Of a DNA stretch of 61,443 nt, positions 10,091-52,715 are shown in pieces (the first letter of the stretch is position 1; every line of letters starts with the position of its first letter). The position numbers and the translations under genes are program-made. The stretch is from a virus: the IMG/VR virus record IMGVR_UViG_3300036901_000131; one strand, given 5' to 3'. The notes beneath the pieces were generated by a model. That model worked only from the letters and a program-made list of their open reading frames with translations. It made no database searches and was not told where the DNA came from.

Positions 10091-12394
10091 TTACTGATTG
10101 GATTCGAGTTTGAGAAAAGCCATCCAACCGATGCTGCCAACTCCTTGATCCTGAACGGTGATCGTGAGCACAGCATCGGCACCAGAACCAACCACGGTCA
10201 GGGCCGGAACCGTCCAATCGACTGCGCCGTCCGTATTGTTCTGTAATGTGAACGTTGGCGTTCCAATGAACTGATAGGTGCCACTACCATCCTTGTAACA
10301 AAGCACCGGAGCGAGGGAGAAGCTGGCCGCGTCAGCGGAGCCTTCCCAGAGAGCGGCTTCATAAGCGATCACGGTTCCGTACAAATTCGCCATCGTGTAA
10401 TAAGTCATGGCTGGTGTGTTGGTGGTCGTCGGACTGTTGCCGTCGACTGTCAAAACGACTGGTCCCGATGTGGTATCAACACCGCCGCTCAGATTGGTCG
10501 TGCTGATCCCGGCAGAAAATGACTGCGTGCCGTCCGTGAAAGTCATCGACATTGGTGCTAAGCTAAAACCATAATCACTTATTGGAAGAGCCGATACGTT
10601 TCCTTCGCTATCGGTAGGGAGATAGATTATTACGGAATCATAACCAGCATCGACAAAAGCCTCTTGATTCGCTGCTGGGCTTGGATCGATGACCGTGAAT
10701 GTCAGGGAGTTTCCCGCACTTCCGGGAGTATTGGCGGTCATGGTCACGCTTGAATCACCCACGGTGAAACTAAAACTGGCGGCGGTTTCCACCGATGTCT
10801 TACCGGCCAGTTTTATCCAGGTCTCGTTGGGTTTGAACGTACCGTTGTAAGTATTTGGATAGCCTGCAATAACGAAACTTCCCATGGTTCGGTCGATGCC
10901 ATGACCAATCACGACGGAATGCGGATAATGGCTGCTCGCGCCGTAACCAATCGCGATGGCATTTTCCGCTGTAGCCATAGCACCAAAACCAATTGCGATG
11001 GCATAAGTTTCCGTCGCTTGAGTAAAAGCACCAAGCGCGGTGGCATAATTCCCGTATCCGTGAGCACTAACACCAAGCGCGACGGCACCCTGCTCCATCG
11101 CTTTGGCATCGTAACCGAGCGCGGTGGCAGCAGTCACAAACGCGACGGTGTGATAACCAAGGGCGACTGTCTTTTCGCCATGGGCATAACTATTGTCACC
11201 AATCGCGATGCCATACAGCGCTGATTTGACTGAGACGTAAGCACCAATCCCTATGGCACAAATTGAGCCAGCGATGTAAACACTACTGCCGATGGCGATT
11301 GAAGTATTGGAGTCCGCATCCACTCTGGCGACATTACCAATGGCGATTGCGTTAACATTACCAAATGAATTTGCGAGGTTTCCAATCGCAACTGAGCCAC
11401 CATGAGCGTAGGCTTGATACCCTATGGCCAGTGCGTAGGTTCCCTTGGCGACCGCCTTGAAGCCCATGGCGATGGATTTCAAGCCATAAGATTCTGAATC
11501 TGCACCAAGCGCGATGCCATACAACGCGGCATCAGCGGCATAAGCGAAGCCACCGATGGTGATCGAATATGTTCCTTTCGCGACGGTGCCGTAGCCAAGC
11601 GACGCGACTCCGCCAGCAGTAATGGCCGCGCCACCACCCACCGCCGTCGCTTTGTCACCTGAGTTGACGCAGTAAGGACCTATCGCGATGGTGTAATCTG
11701 AAGTCGCGGTCGCGTGATAACCAACGGCGAGCGCTGACGTTCCATTCGCGGTACTCTTCTCGCCGACAGTGACCGTGTGATTACCAATGGCGTAGGCTTT
11801 GTAACCAATCGCGACCATCGAGCTACCCGATACGCCAAACGCCTGATGCCCGATTATCACGCTGTAGCTGCCGTAGGATTCCGCATGGGCTCCAATGGCT
11901 ATCGAGTATCCTGTTTCTCCTCTGCATTGCGCGGCTGCGCCGATAGCGATGCCAAAGGGATTGGCCTGCGAATTATAACCCATGGCGATGGCTGCCGGTC
12001 CAAAAGCACCGGCAACTACCCCGATGCTGATCCCATGAGCGTCTGCAACATATGCATGATAACCGAGCGCGATTGTGTAACCAGTACCGGCAATCGCGTT
12101 ATAACCTAGCGCGGTCGCGTTACTGCCTTGGGCGGCGGCATTCCGGCCAACAGCCACTCCATTGGATGCGACTGATGTGCTTTCCCAACCTATCGCGACC
12201 TGACCGACATCCGACCCATTGACAGCGGCGTCTTCGCCGAACACCACGTTCTCGCCATTCAACGCTGCAACGGCGTAGGTCGAGATAGCGGTCAAGGTGG
12301 TTTGCACATCTCCCGCATCCTGAACAACGCCGATGATCTCGGCTCCAGTCAGGGTTGCGGCATCCGGAAATTGCGTGGTTTTTAAATTAGCCAT
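10091..12394 (-). CDS. tail fiber protein paralog (Hep_Hag-like repeats)
   Basis: 767 aa. N-terminus MANLKTTQFPDAATLTGAEIIGVVQ…TLTAISTY and C-terminus (…DWTVPALTVV…LTITVQDQG…FLKLESNQ) are homologous to the 7197..10079 product. Central repeats follow the pattern AIGxxAxAxG. Confidence 0.7.
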   Translation of the reverse strand: MANLKTTQFPDAATLTGAEIIGVVQDAGDVQTTLTAISTYAVAALNGENVVFGEDAAVNGSDVGQVAIGWESTSVASNGVAVGRNAAAQGSNATALGYNAIAGTGYTIALGYHAYVADAHGISIGVVAGAFGPAAIAMGYNSQANPFGIAIGAAAQCRGETGYSIAIGAHAESYGSYSVIIGHQAFGVSGSSMVAIGYKAYAIGNHTVTVGEKSTANGTSALAVGYHATATSDYTIAIGPYCVNSGDKATAVGGGAAITAGGVASLGYGTVAKGTYSITIGGFAYAADAALYGIALGADSESYGLKSIAMGFKAVAKGTYALAIGYQAYAHGGSVAIGNLANSFGNVNAIAIGNVARVDADSNTSIAIGSSVYIAGSICAIGIGAYVSVKSALYGIAIGDNSYAHGEKTVALGYHTVAFVTAATALGYDAKAMEQGAVALGVSAHGYGNYATALGAFTQATETYAIAIGFGAMATAENAIAIGYGASSHYPHSVVIGHGIDRTMGSFVIAGYPNTYNGTFKPNETWIKLAGKTSVETAASFSFTVGDSSVTMTANTPGSAGNSLTFTVIDPSPAANQEAFVDAGYDSVIIYLPTDSEGNVSALPISDYGFSLAPMSMTFTDGTQSFSAGISTTNLSGGVDTTSGPVVLTVDGNSPTTTNTPAMTYYTMANLYGTVIAYEAALWEGSADAASFSLAPVLCYKDGSGTYQFIGTPTFTLQNNTDGAVDWTVPALTVVGSGADAVLTITVQDQGVGSIGWMAFLKLESNQ

Positions 12395-13009: not shown

Positions 13010-14206
13010 TCAGTCGTCGGATGGTGTTCCGTAATAGTAGTCATTCCAGAACAAGCCACCAACGAAGTCCCGGACATGGTCGATCCTGGTCTGCGTCGCA
13101 ATGTTGTTGGCCAGACACTGCCGGATCACGGTCACCGGGTCCTGACCATCCCAGATTTTGAACGCCATGCCGCGCTCAAACTTCGGCAGGGATAAGACAA
13201 CCTCAACGGCGAATCGTTTCTTGTCACCGCACTCCTTCGCGCGAGCGACGAACACCGTCAGCATTGCCGCCTTGATCCTGATGCGTCTCTCGAACTCATT
13301 GCTGAAGTCGTCGATGGCCCGCTTGTCCTTGTCATCCATGAACTGCTTCACGTCATCAACCGTCTCATGCAGCACCAGAGCCCAGACATTCTTTTCCAGG
13401 TTCAAGGTATCCTTGGTGCCATGGATGCGGCAGTACAGGAGGGCCTTCGCCTTCACCATATGACCACTGTCGAAGCGCACGACATAGCCTTCGGCGTCCT
13501 CTAGTAATGAGGTCTCGGTTAGGAATCGCTGAATATCCTCGGCTGAGCCGTCCATCGCTCTGACGACAGGAATATGGAAGCGCGCGGCGATCTCGACCAT
13601 CGCGGGATACAGGTGATACTGACCAGAAACGTTGTGCCGGATGCCGGTCAGAGTTAGCTCGTCCTCGGGATAATCCAGCACGATGCGTTGCTTACGAGAT
13701 GTCCACTCGAAGATGGCCGTGAGACCTTCCTCGCGCATCGCCTCACAGAACGGCGCGTAGGCGTCGCCCACGGCGTCGCTGATCGGCTTGGCTACGTCGG
13801 TGGCTCCCATCTTGGTATGCCACTGCCAAGCGCCCTGACGCTTGAACGCGGTGATCATACTTCCATCCCTCTTCTCAAGGACGCGGTGCGGCATTGACCA
13901 GTCAATGATGCCCATCTGGGTCTCTGGTAACTGATTTACATTGAAGAACTTCGCATAAGGTTTTGCCACGACATCCCCTGTGCTGATGTCGAATTTGATG
14001 CCACGGCAATCGCGGCGAAGTACCGCCAGACGATGCGGCAGACCGGCCAACAACATTGGATCGGGAAAGGTCGTGGGACAGGTGAACATGTAGTTGATCA
14101 CCAGGTAGCCATTGACTTCATCACGCTTGATGATGAACTCTTCGCTACCTTCAATGGCCGGGAGATAATCCTGAATGTTGGATGCTGCTTGAAAACGATA
14201 CTTCAT
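13010..14206 (-). CDS. rnlA: RNA ligase 1 (T4 RnlA-like)
   Basis: Aligns by eye to T4 Rnl1 at DCRGIKFDISTG/ECRGIMFEMDG, PYAKFFNVNQ/PMEKFFNLNE and the nucleotidyltransferase motif I lysine (EKRDGSM/TKEDGSL). Length 398 aa against 374. Confidence 0.8.
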   Translation of the reverse strand: MKYRFQAASNIQDYLPAIEGSEEFIIKRDEVNGYLVINYMFTCPTTFPDPMLLAGLPHRLAVLRRDCRGIKFDISTGDVVAKPYAKFFNVNQLPETQMGIIDWSMPHRVLEKRDGSMITAFKRQGAWQWHTKMGATDVAKPISDAVGDAYAPFCEAMREEGLTAIFEWTSRKQRIVLDYPEDELTLTGIRHNVSGQYHLYPAMVEIAARFHIPVVRAMDGSAEDIQRFLTETSLLEDAEGYVVRFDSGHMVKAKALLYCRIHGTKDTLNLEKNVWALVLHETVDDVKQFMDDKDKRAIDDFSNEFERRIRIKAAMLTVFVARAKECGDKKRFAVEVVLSLPKFERGMAFKIWDGQDPVTVIRQCLANNIATQTRIDHVRDFVGGLFWNDYYYGTPSDD

Positions 14207-34595: not shown

Positions 34596-35573
34596 ATGGC
34601 GACCGAACCGGCGATCAAGTCCGAGATCGAGAAGAAGGTCAGAATTTTTTATGGCCGTAATCTCTATCAAATGCTGGATAAAAGGGCAAGCAGCGCGAAT
34701 GCGTTTCAGCTAATCGGCTTGTCCTGTCTGCGTGATCTCGAAATCAATCGCAATGTCATTCTGACGGGTGATGAGGCAGAGGGTATCCATCAGATGCGAA
34801 TCGCGGTGCGTCGGTTACGCACCTCGATGTCCATTTTCAAGGACATTCTGGAACCGGACCCACAGACCAAGGTGGTGAAAACGCAACTGAAATGGCTGAT
34901 TTCACAATTGGCTCCCGCCCGCGACATCCATGTGTTCCAGACCGAGAGCGTTGAACCCATCGCGCAAGAGCAAAAAGATGAATTCGCGGAGTTACAGCGC
35001 ACTCTCGCGGATCGCAAGGACAAAGCTTTCGCGCAGGCGCGCAAGGCGATCCTGTCCAATGAATATCATACCGATATATCGGTGATGGCCTCATGGCTCG
35101 TGAGCGGTGGATGGCTGAAGGAATTAGATGAGACTCAGGCCAAACGACTGGCCGAACCGGTGCGAGATTTCGCGCAGATGATTTTGACGAGGCGAACCAG
35201 AAAAGTCATCAGCCAGTCCAAGCATCTCGACGAGCTTGATGCCACGCATCGCCATGCGCTTCGGATCATGATCAAGAAGCTGCGCTATTCCGTGGAGTTT
35301 TTTGGTGGCGTCTTTCCGAGAAAAACTTTCGCGAAGCGACAGAAGGCACTGAAGGCGCTCACGCGCTTGCAGAATTCGTTGGGTAAGCTCAATGACATCG
35401 CCGTGGACAAGGCTGAAGGTGTTCTGCAACTGCCCAAGAGCGGTGATTTCGAGACCGGCTACGCTGCTGGCCTCGTGGCTGGTCGTAAACAAACCGAGGT
35501 GAAGCCATTGCTGGCGGGGGCAATGAAGGCCGCTGCTGATCTGCGAAAGCATCGTAAGGGCGTCTCCGCCTGA
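34596..35573 (+). CDS. CHAD domain-containing protein
   Basis: GIHQMRIAVRRLRTSMSIF and HRHALRIMIKKLRYSVEFF match the CHAD conserved-histidine helical motifs (H-x-x-R-hy-x-x-R-R-x-R). Start set at MATEP (34596), preceded by GGGGGAG. Confidence 0.55.
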   Translation: MATEPAIKSEIEKKVRIFYGRNLYQMLDKRASSANAFQLIGLSCLRDLEINRNVILTGDEAEGIHQMRIAVRRLRTSMSIFKDILEPDPQTKVVKTQLKWLISQLAPARDIHVFQTESVEPIAQEQKDEFAELQRTLADRKDKAFAQARKAILSNEYHTDISVMASWLVSGGWLKELDETQAKRLAEPVRDFAQMILTRRTRKVISQSKHLDELDATHRHALRIMIKKLRYSVEFFGGVFPRKTFAKRQKALKALTRLQNSLGKLNDIAVDKAEGVLQLPKSGDFETGYAAGLVAGRKQTEVKPLLAGAMKAAADLRKHRKGVSA

Positions 35574-37929: not shown

Positions 37930-38442
37930 ATGGAAATGACTGAACTGATTAAGTTACCCAAAGTTTTTTGCGATAACGATGGTGTTTTGGCCGACTTCGA
38001 TAGACATGTTCTTGAGTTATTCGGCACCCCTCCGAGCGGCATCCCCGACGATGAGATGTGGGACCTGATCCTCGCGACACCGGATTTCTGGCCGACCATC
38101 CCGCTCAAGTATGGCGCGCATGACCTGTGGGCGATGCTCGCGCCGTATAAGCGAGCGTTCCTCACCGGTTGCCCAAAGGGTCACTATGAGGTCGCCGCCG
38201 CGCACAAGGTGGTATGGTTGAAGAAGCACTTCGGTGATGATGTCGAGGTGATCACCTGTTTGTCACGCAATAAGCCTTTGCACATGGAATCCCCTGGCGA
38301 CATCTTGATTGATGACATGTCCGGCAATATGAGACGTTGGCGCAAGGCGGGCGGCATCGGCATTCACTACAGAACCGTCGAGCAGGCGATGACCGATTTC
38401 AAGAGCGTGATGGAGTCACTCAATGAGCCAAATGCCGTTTGA
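37930..38442 (+). CDS. 5'(3')-deoxyribonucleotidase (NT5C-like, HAD superfamily)
   Basis: The N-terminal VFCDNDGVLADFDRH carries the HAD motif I D-x-D-G-V-L-A-D-F typical of NT5C-family deoxyribonucleotidases common in T4-like phages. Confidence 0.6.
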   Translation: MEMTELIKLPKVFCDNDGVLADFDRHVLELFGTPPSGIPDDEMWDLILATPDFWPTIPLKYGAHDLWAMLAPYKRAFLTGCPKGHYEVAAAHKVVWLKKHFGDDVEVITCLSRNKPLHMESPGDILIDDMSGNMRRWRKAGGIGIHYRTVEQAMTDFKSVMESLNEPNAV

Positions 38443-39913: not shown

Positions 39914-40837
39914 ATGAACAATAAGAACATCGAGCTTTTGGTGTTGATCAAAGGCCGTCCCATCACTCAGTATCATCATCAGGGCAATGTCTTCATCGAA
40001 GGCAGGGCGGGCAGTGAATACGAGATCGAACTGCGCAACCATACCGCCGGACGAGTGGAAGTCGTCCTGTCGGTCGATGGTCTCTCGGTCATCGACGGCA
40101 AATTCGCTGGCCCACAAAGCAGTGGTTATCTGCTGAACGCGCACGGTAACATTCGGGTGCCTGGTTGGATTCTGAACAATCAGAGCGTCGCCAAATTCGC
40201 CTTCGCGGACAAGGAACAAAGCTATTCCACGCAGATGAGTGAAGGCGAGGCGCACAACAATGGTGTCATCGGCATCATGGCGTTCGGTGAGAAACCTCGC
40301 TACGTGTCGTATCCTCAGTTTCATTACATAGCGCCGTATCAACCGATCTATCAGAACAGTCAGGTGAAGACGGTCTATGACAGCGTGAATTGCGGCACAT
40401 CGGCCATCAATTCGTCATCTTTCACGAATTCATCCCAGGCTTTTGGCGGCGCGATGCCCGTCAATTCGTTACCGTTCATTGGCGCGAGCCTCAATAGTGT
40501 CAGTGCGTCCGCGTCGTCCGGTGAAATCCATCAGAGACGAGTACCAAACCGACACCGGATCGATGAGAGCGCGAGAGAAGAAAAAACCTCTGGCGGCATC
40601 ATTGAACAATCACTCGGCACGGCGTTCGGAGAAGCGACCAATTTCGCCACCACGAAAGTGTCCTTCGAGCGCGCCGAGATGATCTCCATGATGGTGGTCT
40701 ATTATGACGAGGCACGCGGCCTGAGAGCCCGTGGCATCGAGATCACGAAGCAATCCCGTAAGAGGCATCAGAAAGTGCCGAAAGCCTTCCCAGCCCTTCA
40801 GGAGGGCTGCCAGCCGCCACACGGCTGGAAGGGCTGA
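39914..40837 (+). CDS. hypothetical protein
   Basis: 307-aa ORF with GGAG upstream. The N-terminal half looks beta-rich. Confidence 0.45.
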   Translation: MNNKNIELLVLIKGRPITQYHHQGNVFIEGRAGSEYEIELRNHTAGRVEVVLSVDGLSVIDGKFAGPQSSGYLLNAHGNIRVPGWILNNQSVAKFAFADKEQSYSTQMSEGEAHNNGVIGIMAFGEKPRYVSYPQFHYIAPYQPIYQNSQVKTVYDSVNCGTSAINSSSFTNSSQAFGGAMPVNSLPFIGASLNSVSASASSGEIHQRRVPNRHRIDESAREEKTSGGIIEQSLGTAFGEATNFATTKVSFERAEMISMMVVYYDEARGLRARGIEITKQSRKRHQKVPKAFPALQEGCQPPHGWKG

Positions 40838-41566
40838 TTACTGGGTGATCTCGCCAAAGAAAGCGAGCTTGTTACTCTTGGAACGCCACAGCATCGCCGA
40901 ACGTCCGCCGTACAATTTACCCTCCTCGTCGCTCGCGCGGGTGCTCGTGGTCTTCGTCCCGGTGGGTTCGATGAGGTCTTCCATCTTACGGCGGAATTTC
41001 GCCTGATCGACCTCATGTCCCATCAGCGATTCATAGACTTTTTGCAGGCTGGTGATGGCGAATTCCCGAGGCATGAGAAACAACGGCAGGGTTGAGTAGT
41101 GGGCTTTGTCGCGAATACGCTTGACCGCGTAATAGATGATTTTCTTGTGATCGAAAGCCAGTTTCTGTGGCAAATTATCGACCGGGAAAAAATCAGCCTG
41201 ATTGTCCGGAGTCTTGATCATGGCGATGTACGCCAGTGACGCCGACCAACCACGCGGATCACGCTTCCTGCCACTGAACATGGCGAGTTGCTCAAGATGC
41301 GAAACTCTCATCTTGAATTTCGTCAGCATCGCGCGTTTGGCGGCGGCGTGGGTATCATTATCGTCATCAGTGTGAATGACCGTGCCAACGAGACCACGAA
41401 CCCCCTCATAAGGTTCACGATCACGCACCGGTAGCAAGACATGCAGACGCGCCGGTTCTCCTTCGACATCGGCGATCAGGGCGAACAAGACCACGTCAAC
41501 AGTCATGAGTGGCCGCTCGAATTCGTACTCATATGTGGTGGCCACTGCTTCCGGCGATCTGGACAC
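40838..41566 (-). CDS. Nudix-fold protein, NrtR-like (Nudix plus C-terminal winged helix)
   Basis: N-terminal PLMTVDVVLFAL…LHVLLPVRDREPYEG…LVGTVI resembles Nudix beta-strands. The C-terminal LPLFLMPREFAITSLQKVYESLMG resembles the NrtR wHTH region. Confidence 0.45.
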   Translation of the reverse strand: MSRSPEAVATTYEYEFERPLMTVDVVLFALIADVEGEPARLHVLLPVRDREPYEGVRGLVGTVIHTDDDNDTHAAAKRAMLTKFKMRVSHLEQLAMFSGRKRDPRGWSASLAYIAMIKTPDNQADFFPVDNLPQKLAFDHKKIIYYAVKRIRDKAHYSTLPLFLMPREFAITSLQKVYESLMGHEVDQAKFRRKMEDLIEPTGTKTTSTRASDEEGKLYGGRSAMLWRSKSNKLAFFGEITQ

Positions 41567-41729
41567 GAAACTCTCCTAAGGTCTGATCGAACTATATAGC
41601 ATAGATTTCGCCCCCGTCAACCCTATTTTCAAAATTGAAAGAATCATTGTTGACTTCGGCCCTCTCGTACCCTTATTTTAAAAATGAAAATAGGGTTTGG
41701 TGGTCAGTCACCTTCCCGAGGAGACGGCG

Positions 41730-42767
41730 ATGACAGACGTAAGTACCTTATCTGGTGAGCAAATTCTCGCCATCCCGGCGTTCGAGCCGGAGCGATTGTT
41801 CGCCACGCCGGACCTGATGCCAGCCAGATACAAGGAACTTGCTCGACGGTGGCATCCTGATCTCCCAAGAGGAAACGAAGAAGTATTCAAGCATATCTCC
41901 ATCCTGCATGACCAGGCGAAGCATCTCATAGATACCGACAATTGGCAGATACCAGGCGAATTCTCATTCGTTACTGATGATGGCAAACGCTACACATTGA
42001 AATACTTCAAAATGTTCGAATTCGAGCTAGGTAAAGCCTATCTCAGCGAGACCCGCGTGACCTACGTGATTCGTAACGAATTCGCCGATCTGGTCGAGAA
42101 CGCGAAAAGAACGATCAGTGGATTGGAGTTTCCCGACAAAGAAACCGAAGATGTGATGCGGCGCTATTTGCCGGTCATCAAGGAAATGTTCAAGACGAAC
42201 GACAGTATCATCCTGATGATCGAGAAGCCAGCCGATCTCATACGCATGCGTGATCTCCTCGATCATCAGGGCGGTCAGATCGATCCGAAACACGTGGCCT
42301 GGATGGTGAGCCGGATGCTCAATCACGCCAGCTATCTTGAGGTGACGAAGTTATCTCATAACGATTTTTCGTTGGATACGCTGTTCGTATGCCCAGAGCA
42401 TCACACGATCTGCGTCCTCGGCGGATGGTGGTACGCGACGAAGATTGGCGAGAAACTGTCAGCGATGCCGCAGCGAACCATCAACAACGCGCCGAGTGAC
42501 GTGATCCATAGCAAAGAAGCGTCCGTGAGCATCGACGCGGAGTTAGTAAGACTAACCGGACGGGAATTGTTGGGCAATGCCAACGGCATTCATCTGACGA
42601 CCGGAACGATACCAGCGCCAATGGTCAACTGGCTGCGGCTCGCGAGCCGAGGCAGCCCGGTGAAAGACTACAGAGAATGGCGTGAGAAAACCCTGATGGA
42701 TAGTTTTGGACCGCGCAAGTTCATCAAGATGAACGTTGCAACTCCGCAAGTATATCCACCACTGTAA
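41730..42767 (+). CDS. J-domain protein fused to a protein-kinase-like (probably atypical or pseudo-kinase) domain
   Basis: N-terminus YKELARRWHPDLPRGNEEVFKHISILHDQ contains the HPD J-domain signature. The C-terminal MLNHASYLEVTKLSHNDFSLDTLFVCPEHHTICVLGGWWYA resembles kinase subdomains VIb-VII (…HRDLKxxNIL…DFG…) with non-canonical residues. Start set at MTDV (41730) with GAGGAG upstream. Confidence 0.55.
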   Translation: MTDVSTLSGEQILAIPAFEPERLFATPDLMPARYKELARRWHPDLPRGNEEVFKHISILHDQAKHLIDTDNWQIPGEFSFVTDDGKRYTLKYFKMFEFELGKAYLSETRVTYVIRNEFADLVENAKRTISGLEFPDKETEDVMRRYLPVIKEMFKTNDSIILMIEKPADLIRMRDLLDHQGGQIDPKHVAWMVSRMLNHASYLEVTKLSHNDFSLDTLFVCPEHHTICVLGGWWYATKIGEKLSAMPQRTINNAPSDVIHSKEASVSIDAELVRLTGRELLGNANGIHLTTGTIPAPMVNWLRLASRGSPVKDYREWREKTLMDSFGPRKFIKMNVATPQVYPPL

Positions 42768-42836
42768 CCAACACTTTTCCGTCAGGTTCGTCGCTCCTGC
42801 GGGAAAGTTTTAATCAGCGACGTTAGGAGAAATAAC

Positions 42837-43760
42837 ATGGGTGGCGCATCATTCGATCCCGGTCACTGGGCCTCATACTCAAAGGCGAAAGTAGCCGGGA
42901 AACCAACCGCAGCGGTATTCACGTCGCGTGGACTCAAGGAGAGTCTTGATCCGAAAAAGATGAAGAACATGCTTCGCGAATCCTGCGATGATGATGTCTG
43001 TCCGGAATCGATGCCAATCATCATCGGTCTGGATGAAACCGGCTCGATGGGCATGATACCGGATTACATGATCCGTACCGGATTTCCAAAATTGTTCGAG
43101 GAAATCTACGCCCGCAAGCCGATCAAACATCCGCACATCATGTTCATGGGCATCGGTGACGCGGAAGTCGATCAGGTTCCGGTACAGGTCAGTCAGTTCG
43201 AATCCGGCATGCGATTGGCGGATCAGTTGATCGACATGTATCTCGAAGGAAACGGCGGCGGCAACAATCACGAGGGCTACACGATGCCCTGGTATGTCGC
43301 GTCGATGCACACGAAGATCGATTGTTTCGATAAGCGTGGCAAGAAAGGCTACCTGATCACGGTCGGTGACGAGGAACCCAATCCGATCCTGTACCGCAAG
43401 GATATCCTGCGGTCGCTTGGCGTCGCTCCGGAAACTGATCTGACAGCGAAACAGCTTCTCGATATGGCGAGCAAGATGTATCACGTGTTTCATGTCATCG
43501 TCGAACAAGGTAGTTATGCTCATTCGCATCCGGCACAGGTGAAAAAGGCGTGGACCGAATTGCTTGGTGAGCGGGTGCTTCCCTTGTCGGATTACACCAA
43601 TCTGAGCGAGGTGATCGTATCCGCGATACAACGAAACGAAGGAGCTTCGTACGACGCCGTGGTGAAAAGCTGGACCGGTGCCACGTCACTGGTCGTCGCG
43701 AGAGCGATTGGCAGCATGATCACGACGCCAACCGGTAACGGTGGAGTTGTTCGCTTCTGA
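42837..43760 (+). CDS. VWA-like domain protein
   Basis: PIIIGLDETGSMG resembles the MIDAS motif (D-x-S/T-x-S) at the start of a Rossmann-like beta-alpha pattern. The antisense 250-aa ORF is rejected. Confidence 0.5.
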   Translation: MGGASFDPGHWASYSKAKVAGKPTAAVFTSRGLKESLDPKKMKNMLRESCDDDVCPESMPIIIGLDETGSMGMIPDYMIRTGFPKLFEEIYARKPIKHPHIMFMGIGDAEVDQVPVQVSQFESGMRLADQLIDMYLEGNGGGNNHEGYTMPWYVASMHTKIDCFDKRGKKGYLITVGDEEPNPILYRKDILRSLGVAPETDLTAKQLLDMASKMYHVFHVIVEQGSYAHSHPAQVKKAWTELLGERVLPLSDYTNLSEVIVSAIQRNEGASYDAVVKSWTGATSLVVARAIGSMITTPTGNGGVVRF

Positions 43761-43774
43761 GATTGTGATAGCAT

Positions 43775-44422
43775 GTGTGCCCGACTCTTAAAAACGTCGG
43801 ACACACATGTTGGAGAACTTTCGTGAAAGCTAAAGCGTTCGTTGGTCAGGTAGTTCAGGTGGAACCGCATCCCAGCATTGAAAATCTCGATGTCGTTTCC
43901 ATGACCGGTGTGAAGATTTTCGGTATCCCCTGGATACCGCGCAATATCGCCAACCGTGAACCGCCCGACCCGGAAGGTGATGGCTCAACCGAGCCTCGCT
44001 ATGAGGTGGGTGATTACGCGGTCATGCTGACCGAGAACATGATCCTGCCGGACTGGCTGTTGAAGCATCTCGACATGTGGGATCACGAGAAAAACAAGGG
44101 CACGTGTGGCGGCAGCAAAGGCAATCGGCTGCGAACCAGAAAGATTCCCAACAATGAAACCGGCATCGTGTCCGACGTGGCGCTGCTGCCGGTCTATTGG
44201 ACGCGAAAAACCGATGAGATGCACAATGGCAGAGTCACGCAACAGGGGCTCTTGCATTTCGCCACCGCCATCGAACCCGATTCGACGGATTTGTTGATAT
44301 CAGCGATCACAGTGTCGAAAGTGATCAACCCCGATGATGGCTCTGACGATGGTGACATCACGCCAGTCGGTTTCGATGTCGCGTCTAACATTGGGATCGA
44401 GGAAATCTACGTACCGCAGTGA
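43775..44422 (+). CDS. hypothetical protein (start uncertain)
   Basis: 215-aa ORF. A possible later start is at MTGVKIF. Confidence 0.35.
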   Translation: MCPTLKNVGHTCWRTFVKAKAFVGQVVQVEPHPSIENLDVVSMTGVKIFGIPWIPRNIANREPPDPEGDGSTEPRYEVGDYAVMLTENMILPDWLLKHLDMWDHEKNKGTCGGSKGNRLRTRKIPNNETGIVSDVALLPVYWTRKTDEMHNGRVTQQGLLHFATAIEPDSTDLLISAITVSKVINPDDGSDDGDITPVGFDVASNIGIEEIYVPQ

Positions 44423-44820
44423 ATTTGGGGAGTTAGACCTCCCCTTTTCAGCTTTTTCCAGTCCAGTTCCCACATTACGATGAGGTGATAGCCTAGCGAT
44501 CTACATGAACAACGGCTGCCTCAGACAGAAATTGCAGGGTCGTTTTTCTACTGTGGTTATTGGCGGTCATAGCTCCGCACCGCTTACACCCTTTGCCCTT
44601 AAGATGTGATCTTGGCTGCTGAGGTATGACGCCGTGAATTGGGCATCCAACATAGATTATTTCCTGTGACCCTCTGTACACTGACATGCTATAGTCATAT
44701 CTAGTTCCATGCACAATCATGGCCGACTCTATGAATTTCTGTGTCGTTAATTTTAAGCCCATTGACTTTCTCACATACTGTGAAAGTATACACGAGATGA
44801 AAGGCGGAGTGGAGGACATT

Positions 44821-45984
44821 ATGCGTGCAGTTGCTGTCATCGGAGCCAACTTTGGTGATGAGGGGAAAGGTCTAATTACCGATTATCTCTCTACACCAAC
44901 AAGTATGGTTGTAAGGTCGAGCGGCGGTAGTAATGCAGGACATACAGTCGTCAGGGATGGCAAGCGGCATATCTTTCGTCATGTCGGCAGCGGCGCGCTG
45001 AAAGGAGCCGCTACCTTCCTGTCGGAATATTTCATCAACAACCCGATCCTGTATTTCAAGGAGCTTGAAATTCTCAAAGGGATCGGTGTCGAACCGCTGG
45101 TGTTCGCCGATCCTGGTGGTATGGTGACGACACCATGGGACATGATGATCAACACTATCCTGGAGGAAAGTCGCGGCGGACATCGACACGGCAGTTGTGG
45201 CGTTGGCATCAATGAAACGATGAAACGAAACACGGGCTTTCATCCGTTTCGGGTCATCCATCTGTTCGACGCGAGGAACATTTGCCGATACATCATGAGC
45301 GATTATGTTCCGAATCGCCTGCGGGAGCTTGAGCTTGAGCCGTCGCCGGTCTGGCGGGAACGACTGACCTCACATCACATTCTCGACGCATTCGTTGAGG
45401 AGTGTGAACAATACCTCAAATCGATTCACATCACATCGCTCAAACAGGCCATCGTCATGAACGGCTCCGACGACATCGTGTTCGAGGGGGCGCAGGGATT
45501 GTTGCTGGATCAGGACCACTATTGGTTCCCCCACGTCACGCATTCCAAGACCGGATTGCATAACGTGTTGGAGATCGCGAAGCAGAATGACGGAATCGGC
45601 GAGATCGCCGTGGTATATGTCTCGCGCGCTTATGCCACGCGACATGGAGCCGGTCCCTTTCCGAGGGAACATTTGTCCTTGTCATATGAGGATGAGACCA
45701 ACGTGCCCAACCGTTGGCAGGGTTCGCTTCGTTTCGGTCATCTCGACCTGAGTTTGCTGGCGCAATCCATTCGCCATGATCTTTGGGCATTCCAAGGAAA
45801 ACCGATACTGGCGATGACCTGTCTCGATCAGGTGGCCGATCCAGTCGAATTCTGGCAGGACGGCATGCTGCAAAGCGAACCCAGAGTCGTCATGGTACGA
45901 CGCGCCTGCGCGTCAATCGAGGCGAAGCAATCACTGATCAGTTTCGGCCCATCGGCCAAGGATGTAATTCCCTTCAAATATTGA
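44821..45984 (+). CDS. purA: adenylosuccinate synthetase homolog (PurA family; candidate PurZ-like)
   Basis: AVIGANFGDEGKGLITDYL and VVRSSGGSNAGHTVV align with E. coli PurA GTQWGDEGKGKIVDLL and VVRYQGGHNAGHTLV, with His replaced by Ser. GSCGVGINETMKR matches the IGTTGRGIGPAYEDK region. Start set at MRAV (44821), preceded by GGAGTGGAGGA. Confidence 0.8.
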   Translation: MRAVAVIGANFGDEGKGLITDYLSTPTSMVVRSSGGSNAGHTVVRDGKRHIFRHVGSGALKGAATFLSEYFINNPILYFKELEILKGIGVEPLVFADPGGMVTTPWDMMINTILEESRGGHRHGSCGVGINETMKRNTGFHPFRVIHLFDARNICRYIMSDYVPNRLRELELEPSPVWRERLTSHHILDAFVEECEQYLKSIHITSLKQAIVMNGSDDIVFEGAQGLLLDQDHYWFPHVTHSKTGLHNVLEIAKQNDGIGEIAVVYVSRAYATRHGAGPFPREHLSLSYEDETNVPNRWQGSLRFGHLDLSLLAQSIRHDLWAFQGKPILAMTCLDQVADPVEFWQDGMLQSEPRVVMVRRACASIEAKQSLISFGPSAKDVIPFKY

Positions 45985-46143
45985 TTCAGTGGGTTCTCGC
46001 CGGTTTACCTGAGAATACTTCTGCGAACGGGCGACGTGCGCCACCCGTATTGCGGGCAAAAATCCCGGCGATTTTCTTGACAGATTCAGATTCCGTGTTA
46101 TGACTCCCAGTGTCAAACATTTTTTTGGGAGTTTCAACACGAT

Positions 46144-47919
46144 ATGGCGAGAACACAGACACGAAGGAAGGCGGCTGCGAAGAAGTCAGCGCGGCGCAAG
46201 ACGCCCGTGAAGGCGGCAGTGAAGCGCAAGGCTGCCGTGAAGGTCGCCGCGAAGAAAGCCGCTCCGGCACGCAAAACCGCTCCAGCCCGTAAGAGCGCGC
46301 CGCCGAAAGTCGCGCGAAAGGCCGCGCCGAAGGCTGCTCGCGCTCCGCGCGTTGTCGCCGCTGACGGTCAGGTGGTCAAACCGGCCAAATCGCCAAGCAA
46401 ACGAGCCCTGGACGCGCAATTGCAGGAACGTCGCCTGTCCCTGGCCGCGCAGTTGCATGACAAGGAGCCCGAACGCGATACCTCCATGATCATCGTCGAT
46501 TATCATCAGCTTCGCACGGAAGCGATTCGCGCCATGGGCGGCGATATCGAGTCGGCGGACGCGAGCGATCTGGTTGAGGTCGAGGGCGTGATGGTCGTGC
46601 GCGGTTCGTTCGCCACCGAGGCCAAAGGTCAGGCCGTGGTCAAGAAAATCCGGGAGCAGAAGAAGGGCGCGGGTACCGTTTTCAACGTGCATCCGCTGGA
46701 TTTTCACATCCTGACCGGCGACCAGCGCATCAATACCCGCGATTTCTCGACACCGGCCATGATCAAGCGGGTCGCTGAACTGACCTATGACATCGCGGCC
46801 AACGGTGTCCAGTTGGAGCTTAAGGCGTTCCAGCGCAACGATCTGCTGTATGGCATGAGCGGCGAAACGCGTTGGCGTGCCACGGCTCATGCGCATGTTC
46901 TCAAATCGCGTGGCCTCGTGGAAGACGCGCCGCCCAGCATTCCGGTCATCCTGATCGCGAAGGGCAAGGACGATGCGTTCATCCAGTTGGATGTGATCAA
47001 ACAGAACATGGTCTTCCCGCAGCCGCCGCTGGAAATCGCCGAGGGCATCGCCAAGTCATTCCATCTCGGCAACACGGTGGAAAAAATCGCGACATACATG
47101 AACGAGACCAAAGCCTGGGTTGAAGGCCGAATCGCGATCATGGGGATGCCCGCCCGCGTCAAGAACATGATTCGGGAAGGCGAAGTTACCATCCCGTTCG
47201 CGTGGCGCGTCTGGGAAGAGGAGAAGCAGGACCCCGATCAAACGGTCGCGACTCTTGAATTCGCTGTCCGCACGGCGAAAGCCCAGGGTTCGACACGCGC
47301 CATGCCTCGGCATCTGCCGCCGAAGGCCGACGCGCCTCGCAAAACGACCGCGAGAGCGCCAGCGCCAGCCGAGGCCACGAACGACACGAGCACCACGACG
47401 GATGAAGTGGCGGCTTTTGGCACGGCCTTGCGGGAGGGCATGGAGACCGGCGCGGCCTCGGCTGTCGGGGTCGACACGGTGACCGACCCCGGTGCGAGCA
47501 CGGTCACCGTCGATGCTTCGGCGATGGAAAAACTGGCGGCACGGCTTCAGGAAGTCGAAGCCGAACTGGACCTGTTCAAACAACAGGACGCGAAGAAGGA
47601 TGCCATCATCGCGGAGAAGGATGCCAAAATCGCGGCGGTGACCAAGGAACGCGATCAAGCCAACAAGCGGGCCGATGAATCAAAAGCCAAAGAGCAAGAA
47701 GCCACAGCCAGGGCCGACAAATCCGATGCAGCACAAGCCAGGTTGACGAAGCACTTCGATAATATCGCCGGGGTGCTGGCCAATTGCCCGCTCAAGAACC
47801 CGGAAGATGGCACGGTTGGAATGTTCCCCTCGCTTGAGAATTTCATCAATCCGGTTGCATCAACCTTGGGCATCGATGTTCCGGAGTGGGCGAAGCCGGA
47901 GGAAGAAGAGGCGGCGTAA
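46144..47919 (+). CDS. histone H1-like/AlgP-like basic N-terminal DNA-binding protein with C-terminal coiled coil
   Basis: First about 75 residues are K/A/R/P repeats (RRKAAAKKSARRKTPVKAAVKRKAAVKVAAKKAAPARKTAPARKSAPPKVARKAAPKAARAPR). C-terminal heptad-rich EAELDLFKQQDAKKDAIIAEKDAKIAAVTKERDQANKRADESKAKE. Antisense ORFs in this GC-rich gene are rejected. Confidence 0.5.
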   Translation: MARTQTRRKAAAKKSARRKTPVKAAVKRKAAVKVAAKKAAPARKTAPARKSAPPKVARKAAPKAARAPRVVAADGQVVKPAKSPSKRALDAQLQERRLSLAAQLHDKEPERDTSMIIVDYHQLRTEAIRAMGGDIESADASDLVEVEGVMVVRGSFATEAKGQAVVKKIREQKKGAGTVFNVHPLDFHILTGDQRINTRDFSTPAMIKRVAELTYDIAANGVQLELKAFQRNDLLYGMSGETRWRATAHAHVLKSRGLVEDAPPSIPVILIAKGKDDAFIQLDVIKQNMVFPQPPLEIAEGIAKSFHLGNTVEKIATYMNETKAWVEGRIAIMGMPARVKNMIREGEVTIPFAWRVWEEEKQDPDQTVATLEFAVRTAKAQGSTRAMPRHLPPKADAPRKTTARAPAPAEATNDTSTTTDEVAAFGTALREGMETGAASAVGVDTVTDPGASTVTVDASAMEKLAARLQEVEAELDLFKQQDAKKDAIIAEKDAKIAAVTKERDQANKRADESKAKEQEATARADKSDAAQARLTKHFDNIAGVLANCPLKNPEDGTVGMFPSLENFINPVASTLGIDVPEWAKPEEEEAA

Positions 47920-52131: not shown

Positions 52132-52259
52132 CCTAAATTAAGGGCAATCGGAAATTCCACCATCGAACTAAAAACTTTGAACAGAACTTCATGTTGACAG
52201 AAAACACTTACAATCCTCATGCGATTGGGCTACAAGTAAGAACTTTCTTGGAGAATGAT

Positions 52260-52715
52260 ATGACGACATTGGATAGAATCAGAGCCGACCGAGACATCGC
52301 GAGAAAGGCTCATGACCCGGTGATCAGCAACATACTGGGCATCGTGATCTCGGACTGTGAAAACAAGGCGCATGGATCGCCGGGTAAGGGTTCGCATGAA
52401 CTGACGGAAGCCGACATCCTCGGTGTGGTTCAGGGCTGGGCGAAGAAAACAAGCGAGACGATGGCTCTGATCAAGGACCGTCCGGAACGGGTTGGTGAAT
52501 ACGTCAAGATGGGAACCGAGGCGGCGGTGCTGGCGGCGTATCTTCCCACCGAGAGGTTGTCGGCGGAGAGATTGCGAGAAATCGCCACTGAACAGAAAGG
52601 TCTCGACATAGGAAAGATCATGCAATACTTGAAGACCGAATATCCTGGTCAATATGACGCGAGAGAAGCCTCCGTCATCATCAAGGATGTACTTGTCGAG
52701 ACATCCAAGGAATAG
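52260..52715 (+). CDS. GatB/YqeY domain protein
   Basis: LREIATEQKGLDIGKIMQYLKTEYPGQYDAREASVIIKDVL resembles the YqeY C-terminus (…[32 protein letters not shown]). Start set at MTTLDRIR. Confidence 0.55.
   Translation: MTTLDRIRADRDIARKAHDPVISNILGIVISDCENKAHGSPGKGSHELTEADILGVVQGWAKKTSETMALIKDRPERVGEYVKMGTEAAVLAAYLPTERLSAERLREIATEQKGLDIGKIMQYLKTEYPGQYDAREASVIIKDVLVETSKE

Follow-up and report, generated by a model that had tools for sequence, protein, structure and literature searches.

The window analysed here is the entire 61,443-bp metagenomic contig of the IMG/VR virus record IMGVR_UViG_3300036901_000131. The contig looks like part of a large phage, because it encodes T4-type topoisomerase II subunits, an RNA ligase and a ParB-like protein. 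Megablast of positions 41000-46000 against cultured phages returned no match, and no close cultured relative was found. Our subject is a gene in which an N-terminal J-domain is fused to a degenerate domain of predicted protein-kinase fold (hereafter JK) and the cassette around it, which has the order NrtR-like regulator (divergent), JK, VWA protein, PurA-like enzyme. The initial annotation had drawn attention to JK and the VWA gene; its coordinates for them, 41730-42767 and 42837-43760, match ours, and the motifs it named (HPD, HNDFSLDT...GGWW and DETGS) were all located. The NrtR-like and PurA-like genes are cassette members beyond those two. The features of the locus are listed below; JK residues are counted from position 41727, i.e. 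+1 relative to the ATG start.

40838-41566, minus strand: NrtR-like gene (degenerate Nudix plus winged-helix), divergent from JK, a putative ADP-ribose-responsive repressor; PF21906 at E=4.7e-13.
41671-41695, no strand assigned: imperfect palindrome CCTTATTTT-N7-AAAATAGGG, a candidate operator overlapping the -10-like hexamer of a promoter-like site (41650-41679, plus strand) that points into JK.
41730-42767, plus strand: JK, predicted J-domain/pseudokinase protein of 345 aa from an ATG with the Shine-Dalgarno sequence GAGGAG upstream; 411 homologues of ~345 aa; AlphaFold2 model with a predicted local distance difference test score (pLDDT) of 95.1.
41748-41936, plus strand: J-domain of JK, residues ~8-70, with HPD at 41853-41861 (residues 43-45).
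41952-42764, plus strand: predicted protein-kinase-fold domain of JK, catalytically degenerate, residues ~76-346.
42357-42431, plus strand: catalytic-loop remnant HNDFSLDT (residues 211-218) through GGWW (232-235, in the place of DFG), read from the translation and from residue frequencies in 176 homologues.
42837-43760, plus strand: VWA-fold protein, phrog_2971, 307 aa from an ATG with AGGAG upstream; many invariant residues.
43032-43046, plus strand: motif DETGS (DxTGS in the family), similar to a metal-ion-dependent adhesion site (MIDAS), with invariant D66, T68, G69 and S70.
43775-44422, plus strand: lineage-specific open reading frame (ORF) of 215 aa from a GTG, separating the VWA gene from the PurA-like gene; no Pfam or PHROG match.
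44719-45984, plus strand: divergent PurA-like enzyme (adenylosuccinate-synthetase family), the constant partner of the VWA protein; Pfam Adenylsucc_synt at E=3e-47.

Searches of Pfam, NCBIfam and PDB with the single JK sequence, for which a TTG at 41697 is another possible start, gave only hints of a J-domain and a kinase, all below threshold (E ~0.05 for J-domains in PDB). The domain assignment rests on family profiles and on structure prediction. A profile built from 44 homologues matches about 50 solved J-domains at E<=0.1, the best at E=9e-6, and PF00226 matches are precomputed for several JK homologues. The HPD signature is kept almost throughout the 176 aligned homologues (H in 174, P in 171, D in 174). 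In the AlphaFold2 model it sits between helix II (28-42), which carries basic residues, and helix III (51-69), in which the VF motif is kept. The N-terminal helices of the model are short, and the long helix III runs straight into the kinase N-lobe. Judged by the profiles and the model, the J-domain of JK is real, and the N-terminal HPD J-domain of the initial annotation stands, with HPD in ~99 % of the homologues. The evidence for the J-domain, the HPD signature and the other motifs far exceeds chance expectation. The family comprises 893 clusters at 50 % identity (E<=1e-30), all of ~340-360 aa and of a single architecture, with HPD and ~50 further positions conserved. The combination of domains had been called unusual, but a family of this size is not peculiar to the phage in the window.

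Regarding the C-terminal domain, Pfam Pkinase (PF00069) did not match the window JK at E<=1, and phrog_3043, labelled 'kinase', matched it at E=0.004. The JK family profile aligned end-to-end by hhalign with gp246 of the mycobacteriophage Alice (probability 99.1 %, E=6e-19, 20 % identity), and gp246 clears the Pfam Pkinase threshold (37.9 vs 31.7 bits). Alignment of the kinase part with PknB reached a probability of 60 % and gave a believable C-lobe register; the N-lobe register derived from PknB conflicts with the secondary structure of the AlphaFold2 model and was not used. Global hhalign against PKA produced no meaningful alignment. The motif register was taken from the alignment with gp246 (HGAITPDN...DWC), with PknB added for the C-lobe; the N-lobe register is a profile alignment and is less certain than that of the C-lobe. 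By profile alignment and predicted structure, the C-terminal domain of JK is a bilobal protein-kinase fold. The non-kinase fold, which the initial annotation had named as the finding that would speak against its kinase-like region, was not borne out.

The residues expected in an active kinase are mostly gone. The initial annotation had pointed to non-canonical catalytic residues, which the gp246 alignment and the frequencies in the 176 homologues confirm, and had proposed looking for the VAIK lysine and the Gly-rich loop, of which neither is present or conserved. The GxGxxG loop is missing throughout the JK family, with a short FELG turn in its place, and the position of the beta3 lysine (I115, aligned to the VAK Lys of gp246) is occupied by I, V or L (68, 62 and 31 sequences across the family). 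At position 213, that of the HRD Asp, the homologues have A (73), D (70), G (21) or S (7). The catalytic-loop Asn, position 218, is T in 126, S in 30 and still N in 17. The DFG Asp, position 233, is Gly in 174 of the 176 and is followed by W234 in 174, so that a Trp-Trp pair is near-invariant. A pseudokinase is by the standard sequence definition a kinase-like domain that has lost at least one of three critical catalytic residues, and because G233 replaces the DFG Asp, the kinase-like domain of JK is a pseudokinase by sequence. The domain had been put forward as either a pseudokinase or an atypical ATP-binding scaffold; the first part of this proposal holds, and the second is disfavoured because the Gly-rich loop, beta3 Lys, catalytic-loop Asn and DFG Asp are all lost. 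W234 and W235, together with the hydrophobic residue at beta3, recall the aromatic-filled ATP pockets of the MviN and GLW pseudokinases and suggest a similar filling here. In the mycobacteriophage branch, gp246 keeps the Asn, a DFG-like Asp (DWC) and probably the VAK Lys, and has Ala at the HRD Asp. Since this branch retains residues that the family of the window has lost, the active site appears, from the alignments, to degenerate progressively across the JK family.

The product of the downstream gene has the VWA alpha/beta fold, and the MIDAS-like VWA domain assigned to it at the outset is upheld by its invariant motif residues. D66-x-T68-G69-S70 comes after a strand spanning 58-66 and has Thr where the MIDAS motif DxSxS has its first Ser. 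Invariant D108 and T175/D178 are, by sequence conservation, candidate distal ligands of the MIDAS site. The family has 1123 matches, a mean column identity of 63 % and 47 invariant columns; its conserved features include an N-terminal extension with a RESxDS-like motif, a GGGGN loop and a TxGDE motif. No Pfam or NCBIfam model matched the VWA protein, and phrog_2971, 'unknown function', is its sole PHROG label. The N-terminus (42837-42842 in the window) is Met-Gly in 115/117 called proteins and at 159/164 loci, and the VWA proteins of mycobacteriophages also begin this way (MGSGAWD). The free N-terminal glycine that this conservation suggests may serve, for example, as an acceptor or a nucleophile.

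In phage Alice, the VWA-like gene gp247 (JF704092, locus L008 6053-7837) is split by an intein of ~255 aa with a weak Hint match, and most other cluster C1 phages carry a gp247-type copy without it. The intein lies exactly in an invariant strand, between KKGY and LFTVGDE, with the junctions ...KGY/C...SN/CIFIGDE. Inteins usually occupy functionally critical sites. We marked this strand of the VWA protein as important because the intein interrupts precisely this element.

The PurA-like protein is, by sequence, a member of the adenylosuccinate-synthetase family that is an orthologue of neither PurA nor PurZ. Its NCBIfam scores are 143.8 for PurA (cut-off 402) and 48.9 for PurZ (cut-off 300). The start at 44719 may be ~34 codons too early, because the P-loop begins only at residue 45, whereas that of Escherichia coli PurA begins at residue 12; an internal Met at ~44821 is a candidate start. 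For comparison we used what we take to be the E. coli PurA sequence and its residue roles (e.g. D333 as the residue specifying guanine). Across 153 members the GTP P-loop GDEGKG, H41, Q224, T239 and D333 are kept, and with them the catalytic residues of the GTP and IMP type. The aspartate loop (TTGRxRR) is rebuilt, with T300 replaced by an aromatic residue, T301 by an invariant Q and R305 by L, and with R303 deleted; the position of V273 is an invariant His. From this pattern we infer a GTP-dependent ligase whose amine acceptor or substrate would not be the usual one. The PHROG label 'aminooxy adenylosuccinate synthetase' would make the protein a PurZ of the Z-genome pathway; this identity was rejected on the score of 48.9 against 300, on the retained Asp of GDEGKG and because neither DatZ nor MazZ was seen.

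We collected loci through the VWA alignment alone and scored six-frame ORFs with a profile of each cassette component. The VWA protein occurs in the genomes of at least 554 species and on at least 578 IMG/VR contigs. At 84 non-redundant genome loci, all with VWA, the PurA-like gene lies directly downstream in 81, JK directly upstream in 62 and an NrtR-like gene adjacent in 43. The corresponding numbers for 80 viral loci, again all with VWA, are 78, 42 and 0. Where JK is found upstream of VWA, it is always on the same strand and VWA is followed by PurA-like, and the cassette genes at the loci examined are 2-15 nt apart or overlap. VWA, PurA-like, JK and NrtR-like are the only four recurrent families at the genome loci, and no further protein family recurs in the 84 genome and 80 viral loci together. 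The contigs of four distant homologues show the same arrangement, i.e. NrtR-like or NMNAT-Nudix plus NAMPT, then JK, VWA, 0-2 small ORFs and PurA-like. Because the presence of JK varies by VWA clade (102 loci with JK, 42 without and 6 undetermined; n=150), VWA and PurA-like are the core of the cassette and JK is a frequent accessory.

The hosts include Gamma-, Beta- and Alphaproteobacteria, Clostridia, Cyanobacteria/Melainabacteria, Acidobacteria and Bdellovibrionales, as well as one Patescibacteria metagenome-assembled genome (MAG) and one contig of an archaeal (Thermoplasmatales) MAG. The cassette is present in chromosomes, megaplasmids and unrelated phages. Among cultured phages it was found in 219, namely 201 of Mycobacterium (mostly cluster C1), 10 jumbo-type phages of Rhizobium and 6 of Vibrio. 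In phage Alice, gp246, gp247 and gp249 are all homologous to the JK, VWA and PurA-like proteins of the window (hhalign probability 99.7 % for gp247 with VWA; 32 % identity of gp249 with PurA-like). A complete four-gene cassette with overlapping stop and start codons is carried by plasmid pAtS4e of Allorhizobium ampelinum (Agrobacterium vitis) S4 (L170 3148-7108), and consists of a NUDIX protein (WP_049777546), JK (WP_015918603), VWA (WP_015918602) and an 'adenylosuccinate synthetase' (WP_015918601). On this plasmid, an AAA ATPase/DUF5682/DUF4132 cluster lies just downstream of the cassette and a VgrG gene of a type VI secretion system upstream.

PADLOC-DB 2.0 contains no match for the window JK, VWA, PurA-like or NrtR-like proteins, and gp246 of Alice hit only generic kinase-domain models in PADLOC. 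The cassette as a known anti-phage defence system was discarded on this result.

The NrtR-like protein combines a Nudix-like N-domain, whose Nudix box is degenerate by eye, with the winged-helix DNA-binding domain of NrtR. It matches the NCBIfam model 'ADPR responsive transcriptional repressor' at E=2.5e-36 over model positions 13-231/245, with 125 bits compared with an equivalog cut-off of 400. In the 163-bp intergenic region (41567-41729), a half-site related to the candidate operator covers the promoter-like site of the NrtR-like gene at ~41621-41641. Promoter-like sites are no more frequent in this region than expected by chance; position alone is suggestive. We found no operator motif shared across the NrtR-containing loci, only palindromes that differ by lineage, e.g. 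TAAATTGCAA-N8-TTGCAATTTA in locus L059. Judging from the domains and the layout, the operon is probably under the control of the NrtR-like protein and of ADP-ribose.

Genes of nicotinamide adenine dinucleotide (NAD) salvage recur near the cassette in independent phage lineages. On a 549-kb phage-like contig (L005 5193-7720), NMNAT-Nudix and NAMPT genes are directly upstream, and in Rhizobium phage RHph_TM40 (L169 590-2265) a phosphoribosyltransferase-like gene and an NMNAT/Nudix gene lie 3-4 kb upstream. NAMPT-like genes were seen near the cassette at ~9/80 viral loci and at a few Clostridium loci. These recurring neighbours point to NAD/ADP-ribose metabolism or to an NAD-centred conflict between phage and host.

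Most probably JK serves the VWA/PurA-like module as a dedicated co-chaperone of DnaK or as an adaptor, a reading to which we give about an even chance. JK would be a J-domain co-chaperone of the class-C type whose client or adaptor module is the pseudokinase, devoid of the residues for Mg-ATP binding and phosphotransfer. The pseudokinase domain would be a rigid platform on which the co-transcribed VWA and PurA-like products dock, binding either the VWA protein directly, perhaps via its MIDAS metal site, or a VWA/PurA-like complex. Its HPD J-domain would bring in host DnaK-ATP and fire the DnaK ATPase on the docked client, and DnaK would then assemble, activate, remodel or recycle the VWA/PurA-like machine. 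The divergent NrtR-like protein would keep the operon off until ADP-ribose or a related nucleotide lifts the repression, which would link the module to NAD/ADP-ribose status. Recruitment of DnaK by JK is suggested by the conserved J-domain, and JK, VWA and PurA-like proteins presumably interact physically. The delivery of DnaK to a particular target, as suggested by the initial annotation, would be consistent with the tight linkage of the genes. A shared function of JK with VWA and PurA-like is supported because the genes are strictly adjacent and co-oriented. The operon linkage is further supported by the trio in Mycobacterium cluster C1 phages, which are very distant.

Several observations speak against the co-chaperone role. 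The match of the single JK sequence to Pfam DnaJ (PF00226) is weak (E=0.023, 15.2 bits, gathering cut-off 27.8), and the canonical helix IV of J-domains is not evident in the AlphaFold2 model. JK is missing from ~30 % of the VWA/PurA-like pairs (42/150) and is accordingly an accessory, or supplied in trans. The VWA protein is more strongly conserved than is usual for something that is no more than an adaptor, and the 'client' may itself be an enzyme. Finally, the window JK retains Asp213, and K167, D121, H189, H211, D217 and H226 are strongly conserved polar residues of JK that could line a ligand pocket or make up an active site of an unconventional type.

Alternatively, the kinase-fold domain may still be enzymatically active in an unconventional way, as a kinase whose catalytic residues have migrated or as an AMPylase or glutamylase of the SelO or SidJ kind. 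Its target for covalent modification would be DnaK, on which the J-domain would dock it, or the VWA protein of the same operon. SidJ is reportedly a kinase fold with glutamylase, i.e. non-phosphotransfer, chemistry. The fold is intact and confidently modelled, and near-invariant polar residues surround the former active site (K167 in 169, H211 in 172, H226 in all 176, D217/E in 155 and D121 in 152 homologues). Moreover, the mycobacteriophage homologues retain the catalytic-loop Asn and the Asp of DWC and clear the Pfam Pkinase threshold. However, nearly all members of the family of the window have lost the two Mg-binding residues (T/S replaces the Asn, and Gly the DFG Asp in 174/176), the Gly-rich loop and beta3 Lys are gone, and over half of the sequences have Ala or Gly at the position of the putative catalytic base. 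An active enzyme thus seems unlikely to us.

The pseudokinase could instead be a small-molecule sensor with a remodelled pocket for a nucleotide-like ligand, e.g. ADP-ribose, an NAD derivative or what the PurA-like enzyme makes. Ligand binding would switch the access of the J-domain to DnaK, and JK would be a ligand-gated co-chaperone or regulator instead of an adaptor for clients. The module is tied to nucleotide and NAD metabolism by the PurA-like enzyme, the NrtR-like regulator and the NMNAT/NAMPT neighbours, pocket-lining positions are invariant (GGWW, H226, K167), and pseudokinases often act as conformational switches. On the other hand, the two invariant Trp at DFG and the hydrophobic beta3 residue suggest, by analogy with MviN, a pocket that is already filled, and we consider a sensor doubtful.

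JK might also act independently of its neighbours as a hijacker of DnaK, titrating or redirecting the host chaperone, for example to stabilise sigma-32 or to block a DnaJ-dependent defence. Rki of phage RB43 is a precedent, as this phage-encoded J-domain protein is specific in its action on DnaK and helps the phage to grow (PMC3486835), and a passage of PMC12619734 cites work implicating host DnaJ in phage sensing. The window is itself phage-like (topoisomerase II, RNA ligase). However, free-living bacteria from many phyla, in which a takeover would be senseless, carry this gene at an identical place in the operon on chromosomes and plasmids, and its adjacency and co-orientation with VWA and PurA-like argue for a shared function; we regard hijacking as quite improbable. 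That JK and VWA are adjacent by chance, or that the fusion is a non-functional relic, is hardly credible, given the 893 clusters of uniform architecture, the retention of HPD and ~50 other positions and the synteny across phyla, plasmids and phages.

Beyond the co-chaperone role of JK, the cassette as a whole could be an NAD/ADP-ribose-responsive system that produces a ligase-modified partner or a new metabolite, is serviced by DnaK and acts as a counter-defence or stress module, which we offer as a long shot. ADP-ribose would derepress it via the NrtR-like protein, e.g. when an NAD-depleting immunity fires. The PurA-like ligase would attach a nucleotide-derived group to an amine, possibly the N-terminal Gly of the VWA protein, or alternatively produce a new nucleotide metabolite, and JK would put host DnaK to use in loading, activating or recycling the complex. 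In phages, such a system would be a counter-defence or NAD-economy device, and in bacteria a stress or defence module.

Around the cassette, the homologues of the 215-aa ORF are confined to the closely related loci L002-L004, and the ORF is absent from the other 80 genome and 80 viral loci. A 307-aa ORF upstream of the regulator (39914-40837, plus strand) has no family match and is likewise conserved only in L002-L004. Downstream of the PurA-like gene lies the ParB-like protein (46144-47919, plus strand; phrog_1033, weak HTH_ParB match), which has a long, histone-H1-like N-terminal tail rich in Lys, Ala and Pro and a coiled-coil C-terminus. The local GC content of this region is high (0.60), with an AT skew of 0.185, and in L002, too, the ParB-like gene comes after the cassette. 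Two adjacent large paralogues on the minus strand, 7197-10079 (960 aa) and 10091-12394 (767 aa), both match phrog_20057 and phrog_10464; in L002, similar large proteins and a collagen-like protein are upstream of the cassette. The window also encodes the RNA ligase (13010-14206), the T4-type topoisomerase II subunits (30371-33638) and, all on the plus strand, a CHAD-domain protein (34539-35573, E=2e-45), an NT5C-type 5'-nucleotidase-like protein (37930-38442) and a YqeY-like protein (52191-52715).

Hsp70 owes its specificity to J-domain proteins, and pseudokinases are increasingly recognised as scaffolds and switches. In the literature searched we came across neither the cassette nor a J-domain pseudokinase, and the fusion of a J-domain with a pseudokinase was previously uncatalogued in bacteria or phages. 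JK marks a compact, very widespread and highly conserved operon, apparently undescribed, that is shared by chromosomes, megaplasmids, jumbo phages and ~200 cultured mycobacteriophages. Because an ADP-ribose-type repressor and phage NAD-salvage genes recur beside it, the cassette may have a part in the arms race over NAD between phages and bacterial immunity, or in a new kind of nucleotide chemistry. By itself the fusion of domains is a moderate surprise; the conserved NAD-linked operon is the more valuable lead. Tractable models are A. vitis S4 pAtS4e, Massilia, Clostridium drakei, the Mycobacterium cluster C1 phages and Rhizobium phage RHph_TM40.

Among known systems, Rki (gp057w) of the T4-related phage RB43 resembles JK in being a phage-encoded, non-generic J-domain protein (PMC3486835); its J-domain engages host DnaK for a dedicated purpose, as that of JK would. 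The sequence relation between the two is limited to the J-domain, and the JK family is found also in cellular genomes. The abstract on Rki names no kinase-like domain, and we know of none in this protein, nor of any link between Rki and a VWA/PurA-like operon. Gp246 of Alice (AEJ94468, cluster C1, Bixzunavirus), annotated as 'serine/threonine kinase', is a true distant homologue of JK that retains HPD, and as in the window it precedes the VWA-like gp247 and the PurA-like gp249. It differs in keeping the Pfam Pkinase match, the Asn, DWC and a probable VAK Lys, which the family of the window has lost. The 'kinase' annotation of gp246 is by homology only, and its J-domain is unannotated.

In eukaryotes, a J-domain and a kinase fold are also united in one polypeptide in GAK (auxilin-2, DNAJC26) and in the oncogenic fusion DNAJB1-PRKACA, chains of which (4wb7, 6wjf) are among the J-domain matches of the JK profile. 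The kinases of both are active, and the J-domain of GAK is C-terminal and accompanied by PTEN-like and clathrin-binding domains. Neither is orthologous to JK, whose kinase is degenerate and whose partners are VWA and PurA-like proteins.

At the level of whole systems, the nearest analogies are VWA-based. The MoxR AAA+/VWA pairs (NorQ/NorD, CbbQ/CbbO, BchI/BchD and RavA/ViaA) offer an analogy in logic and not in ATPase homology, in which host Hsp70, brought in by the J-domain, would supply the ATP-driven remodelling in place of the AAA+ motor. Membership in the MoxR-VWA class was rejected, as the conserved cassette has no MoxR ATPase and the AAA ATPase downstream on pAtS4e is not conserved elsewhere. 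The TerY-P triad, reportedly described by Anantharaman, Iyer and Aravind in 2012, is said to consist of the VWA protein TerY, a PP2C phosphatase and a Ser/Thr kinase. Like the cassette, it pairs a VWA and a kinase-fold protein in an operon. The cassette was not assigned to TerY-P, as no phosphatase family recurs in the 84 genome and 80 viral loci, the kinase is degenerate and fused to a J-domain, and the constant partner is PurA-like.

The bacterial pseudokinase families catalogued so far, ActPs1-3 (including MviN), GLW, CP1, DYD and DLHK, derive from bacterial Ser/Thr kinases and have degraded VAIK, HRD and DFG motifs (PMC12599244). In MviN aromatic residues fill the ATP pocket, and in GLW Leu or Trp replaces the beta3 Lys (PMC12599244); the I/V/L at beta3 and the GGWW of JK are comparable. 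However, none of these catalogued families has a J-domain or GGWW and most are membrane-tethered (PMC12599244), whereas JK is soluble, ~345 aa long and operon-linked to VWA and PurA-like. JK and its neighbour are thus of known kinds, a J-domain protein, a pseudokinase and a VWA protein, joined here in what is apparently an undescribed operon.

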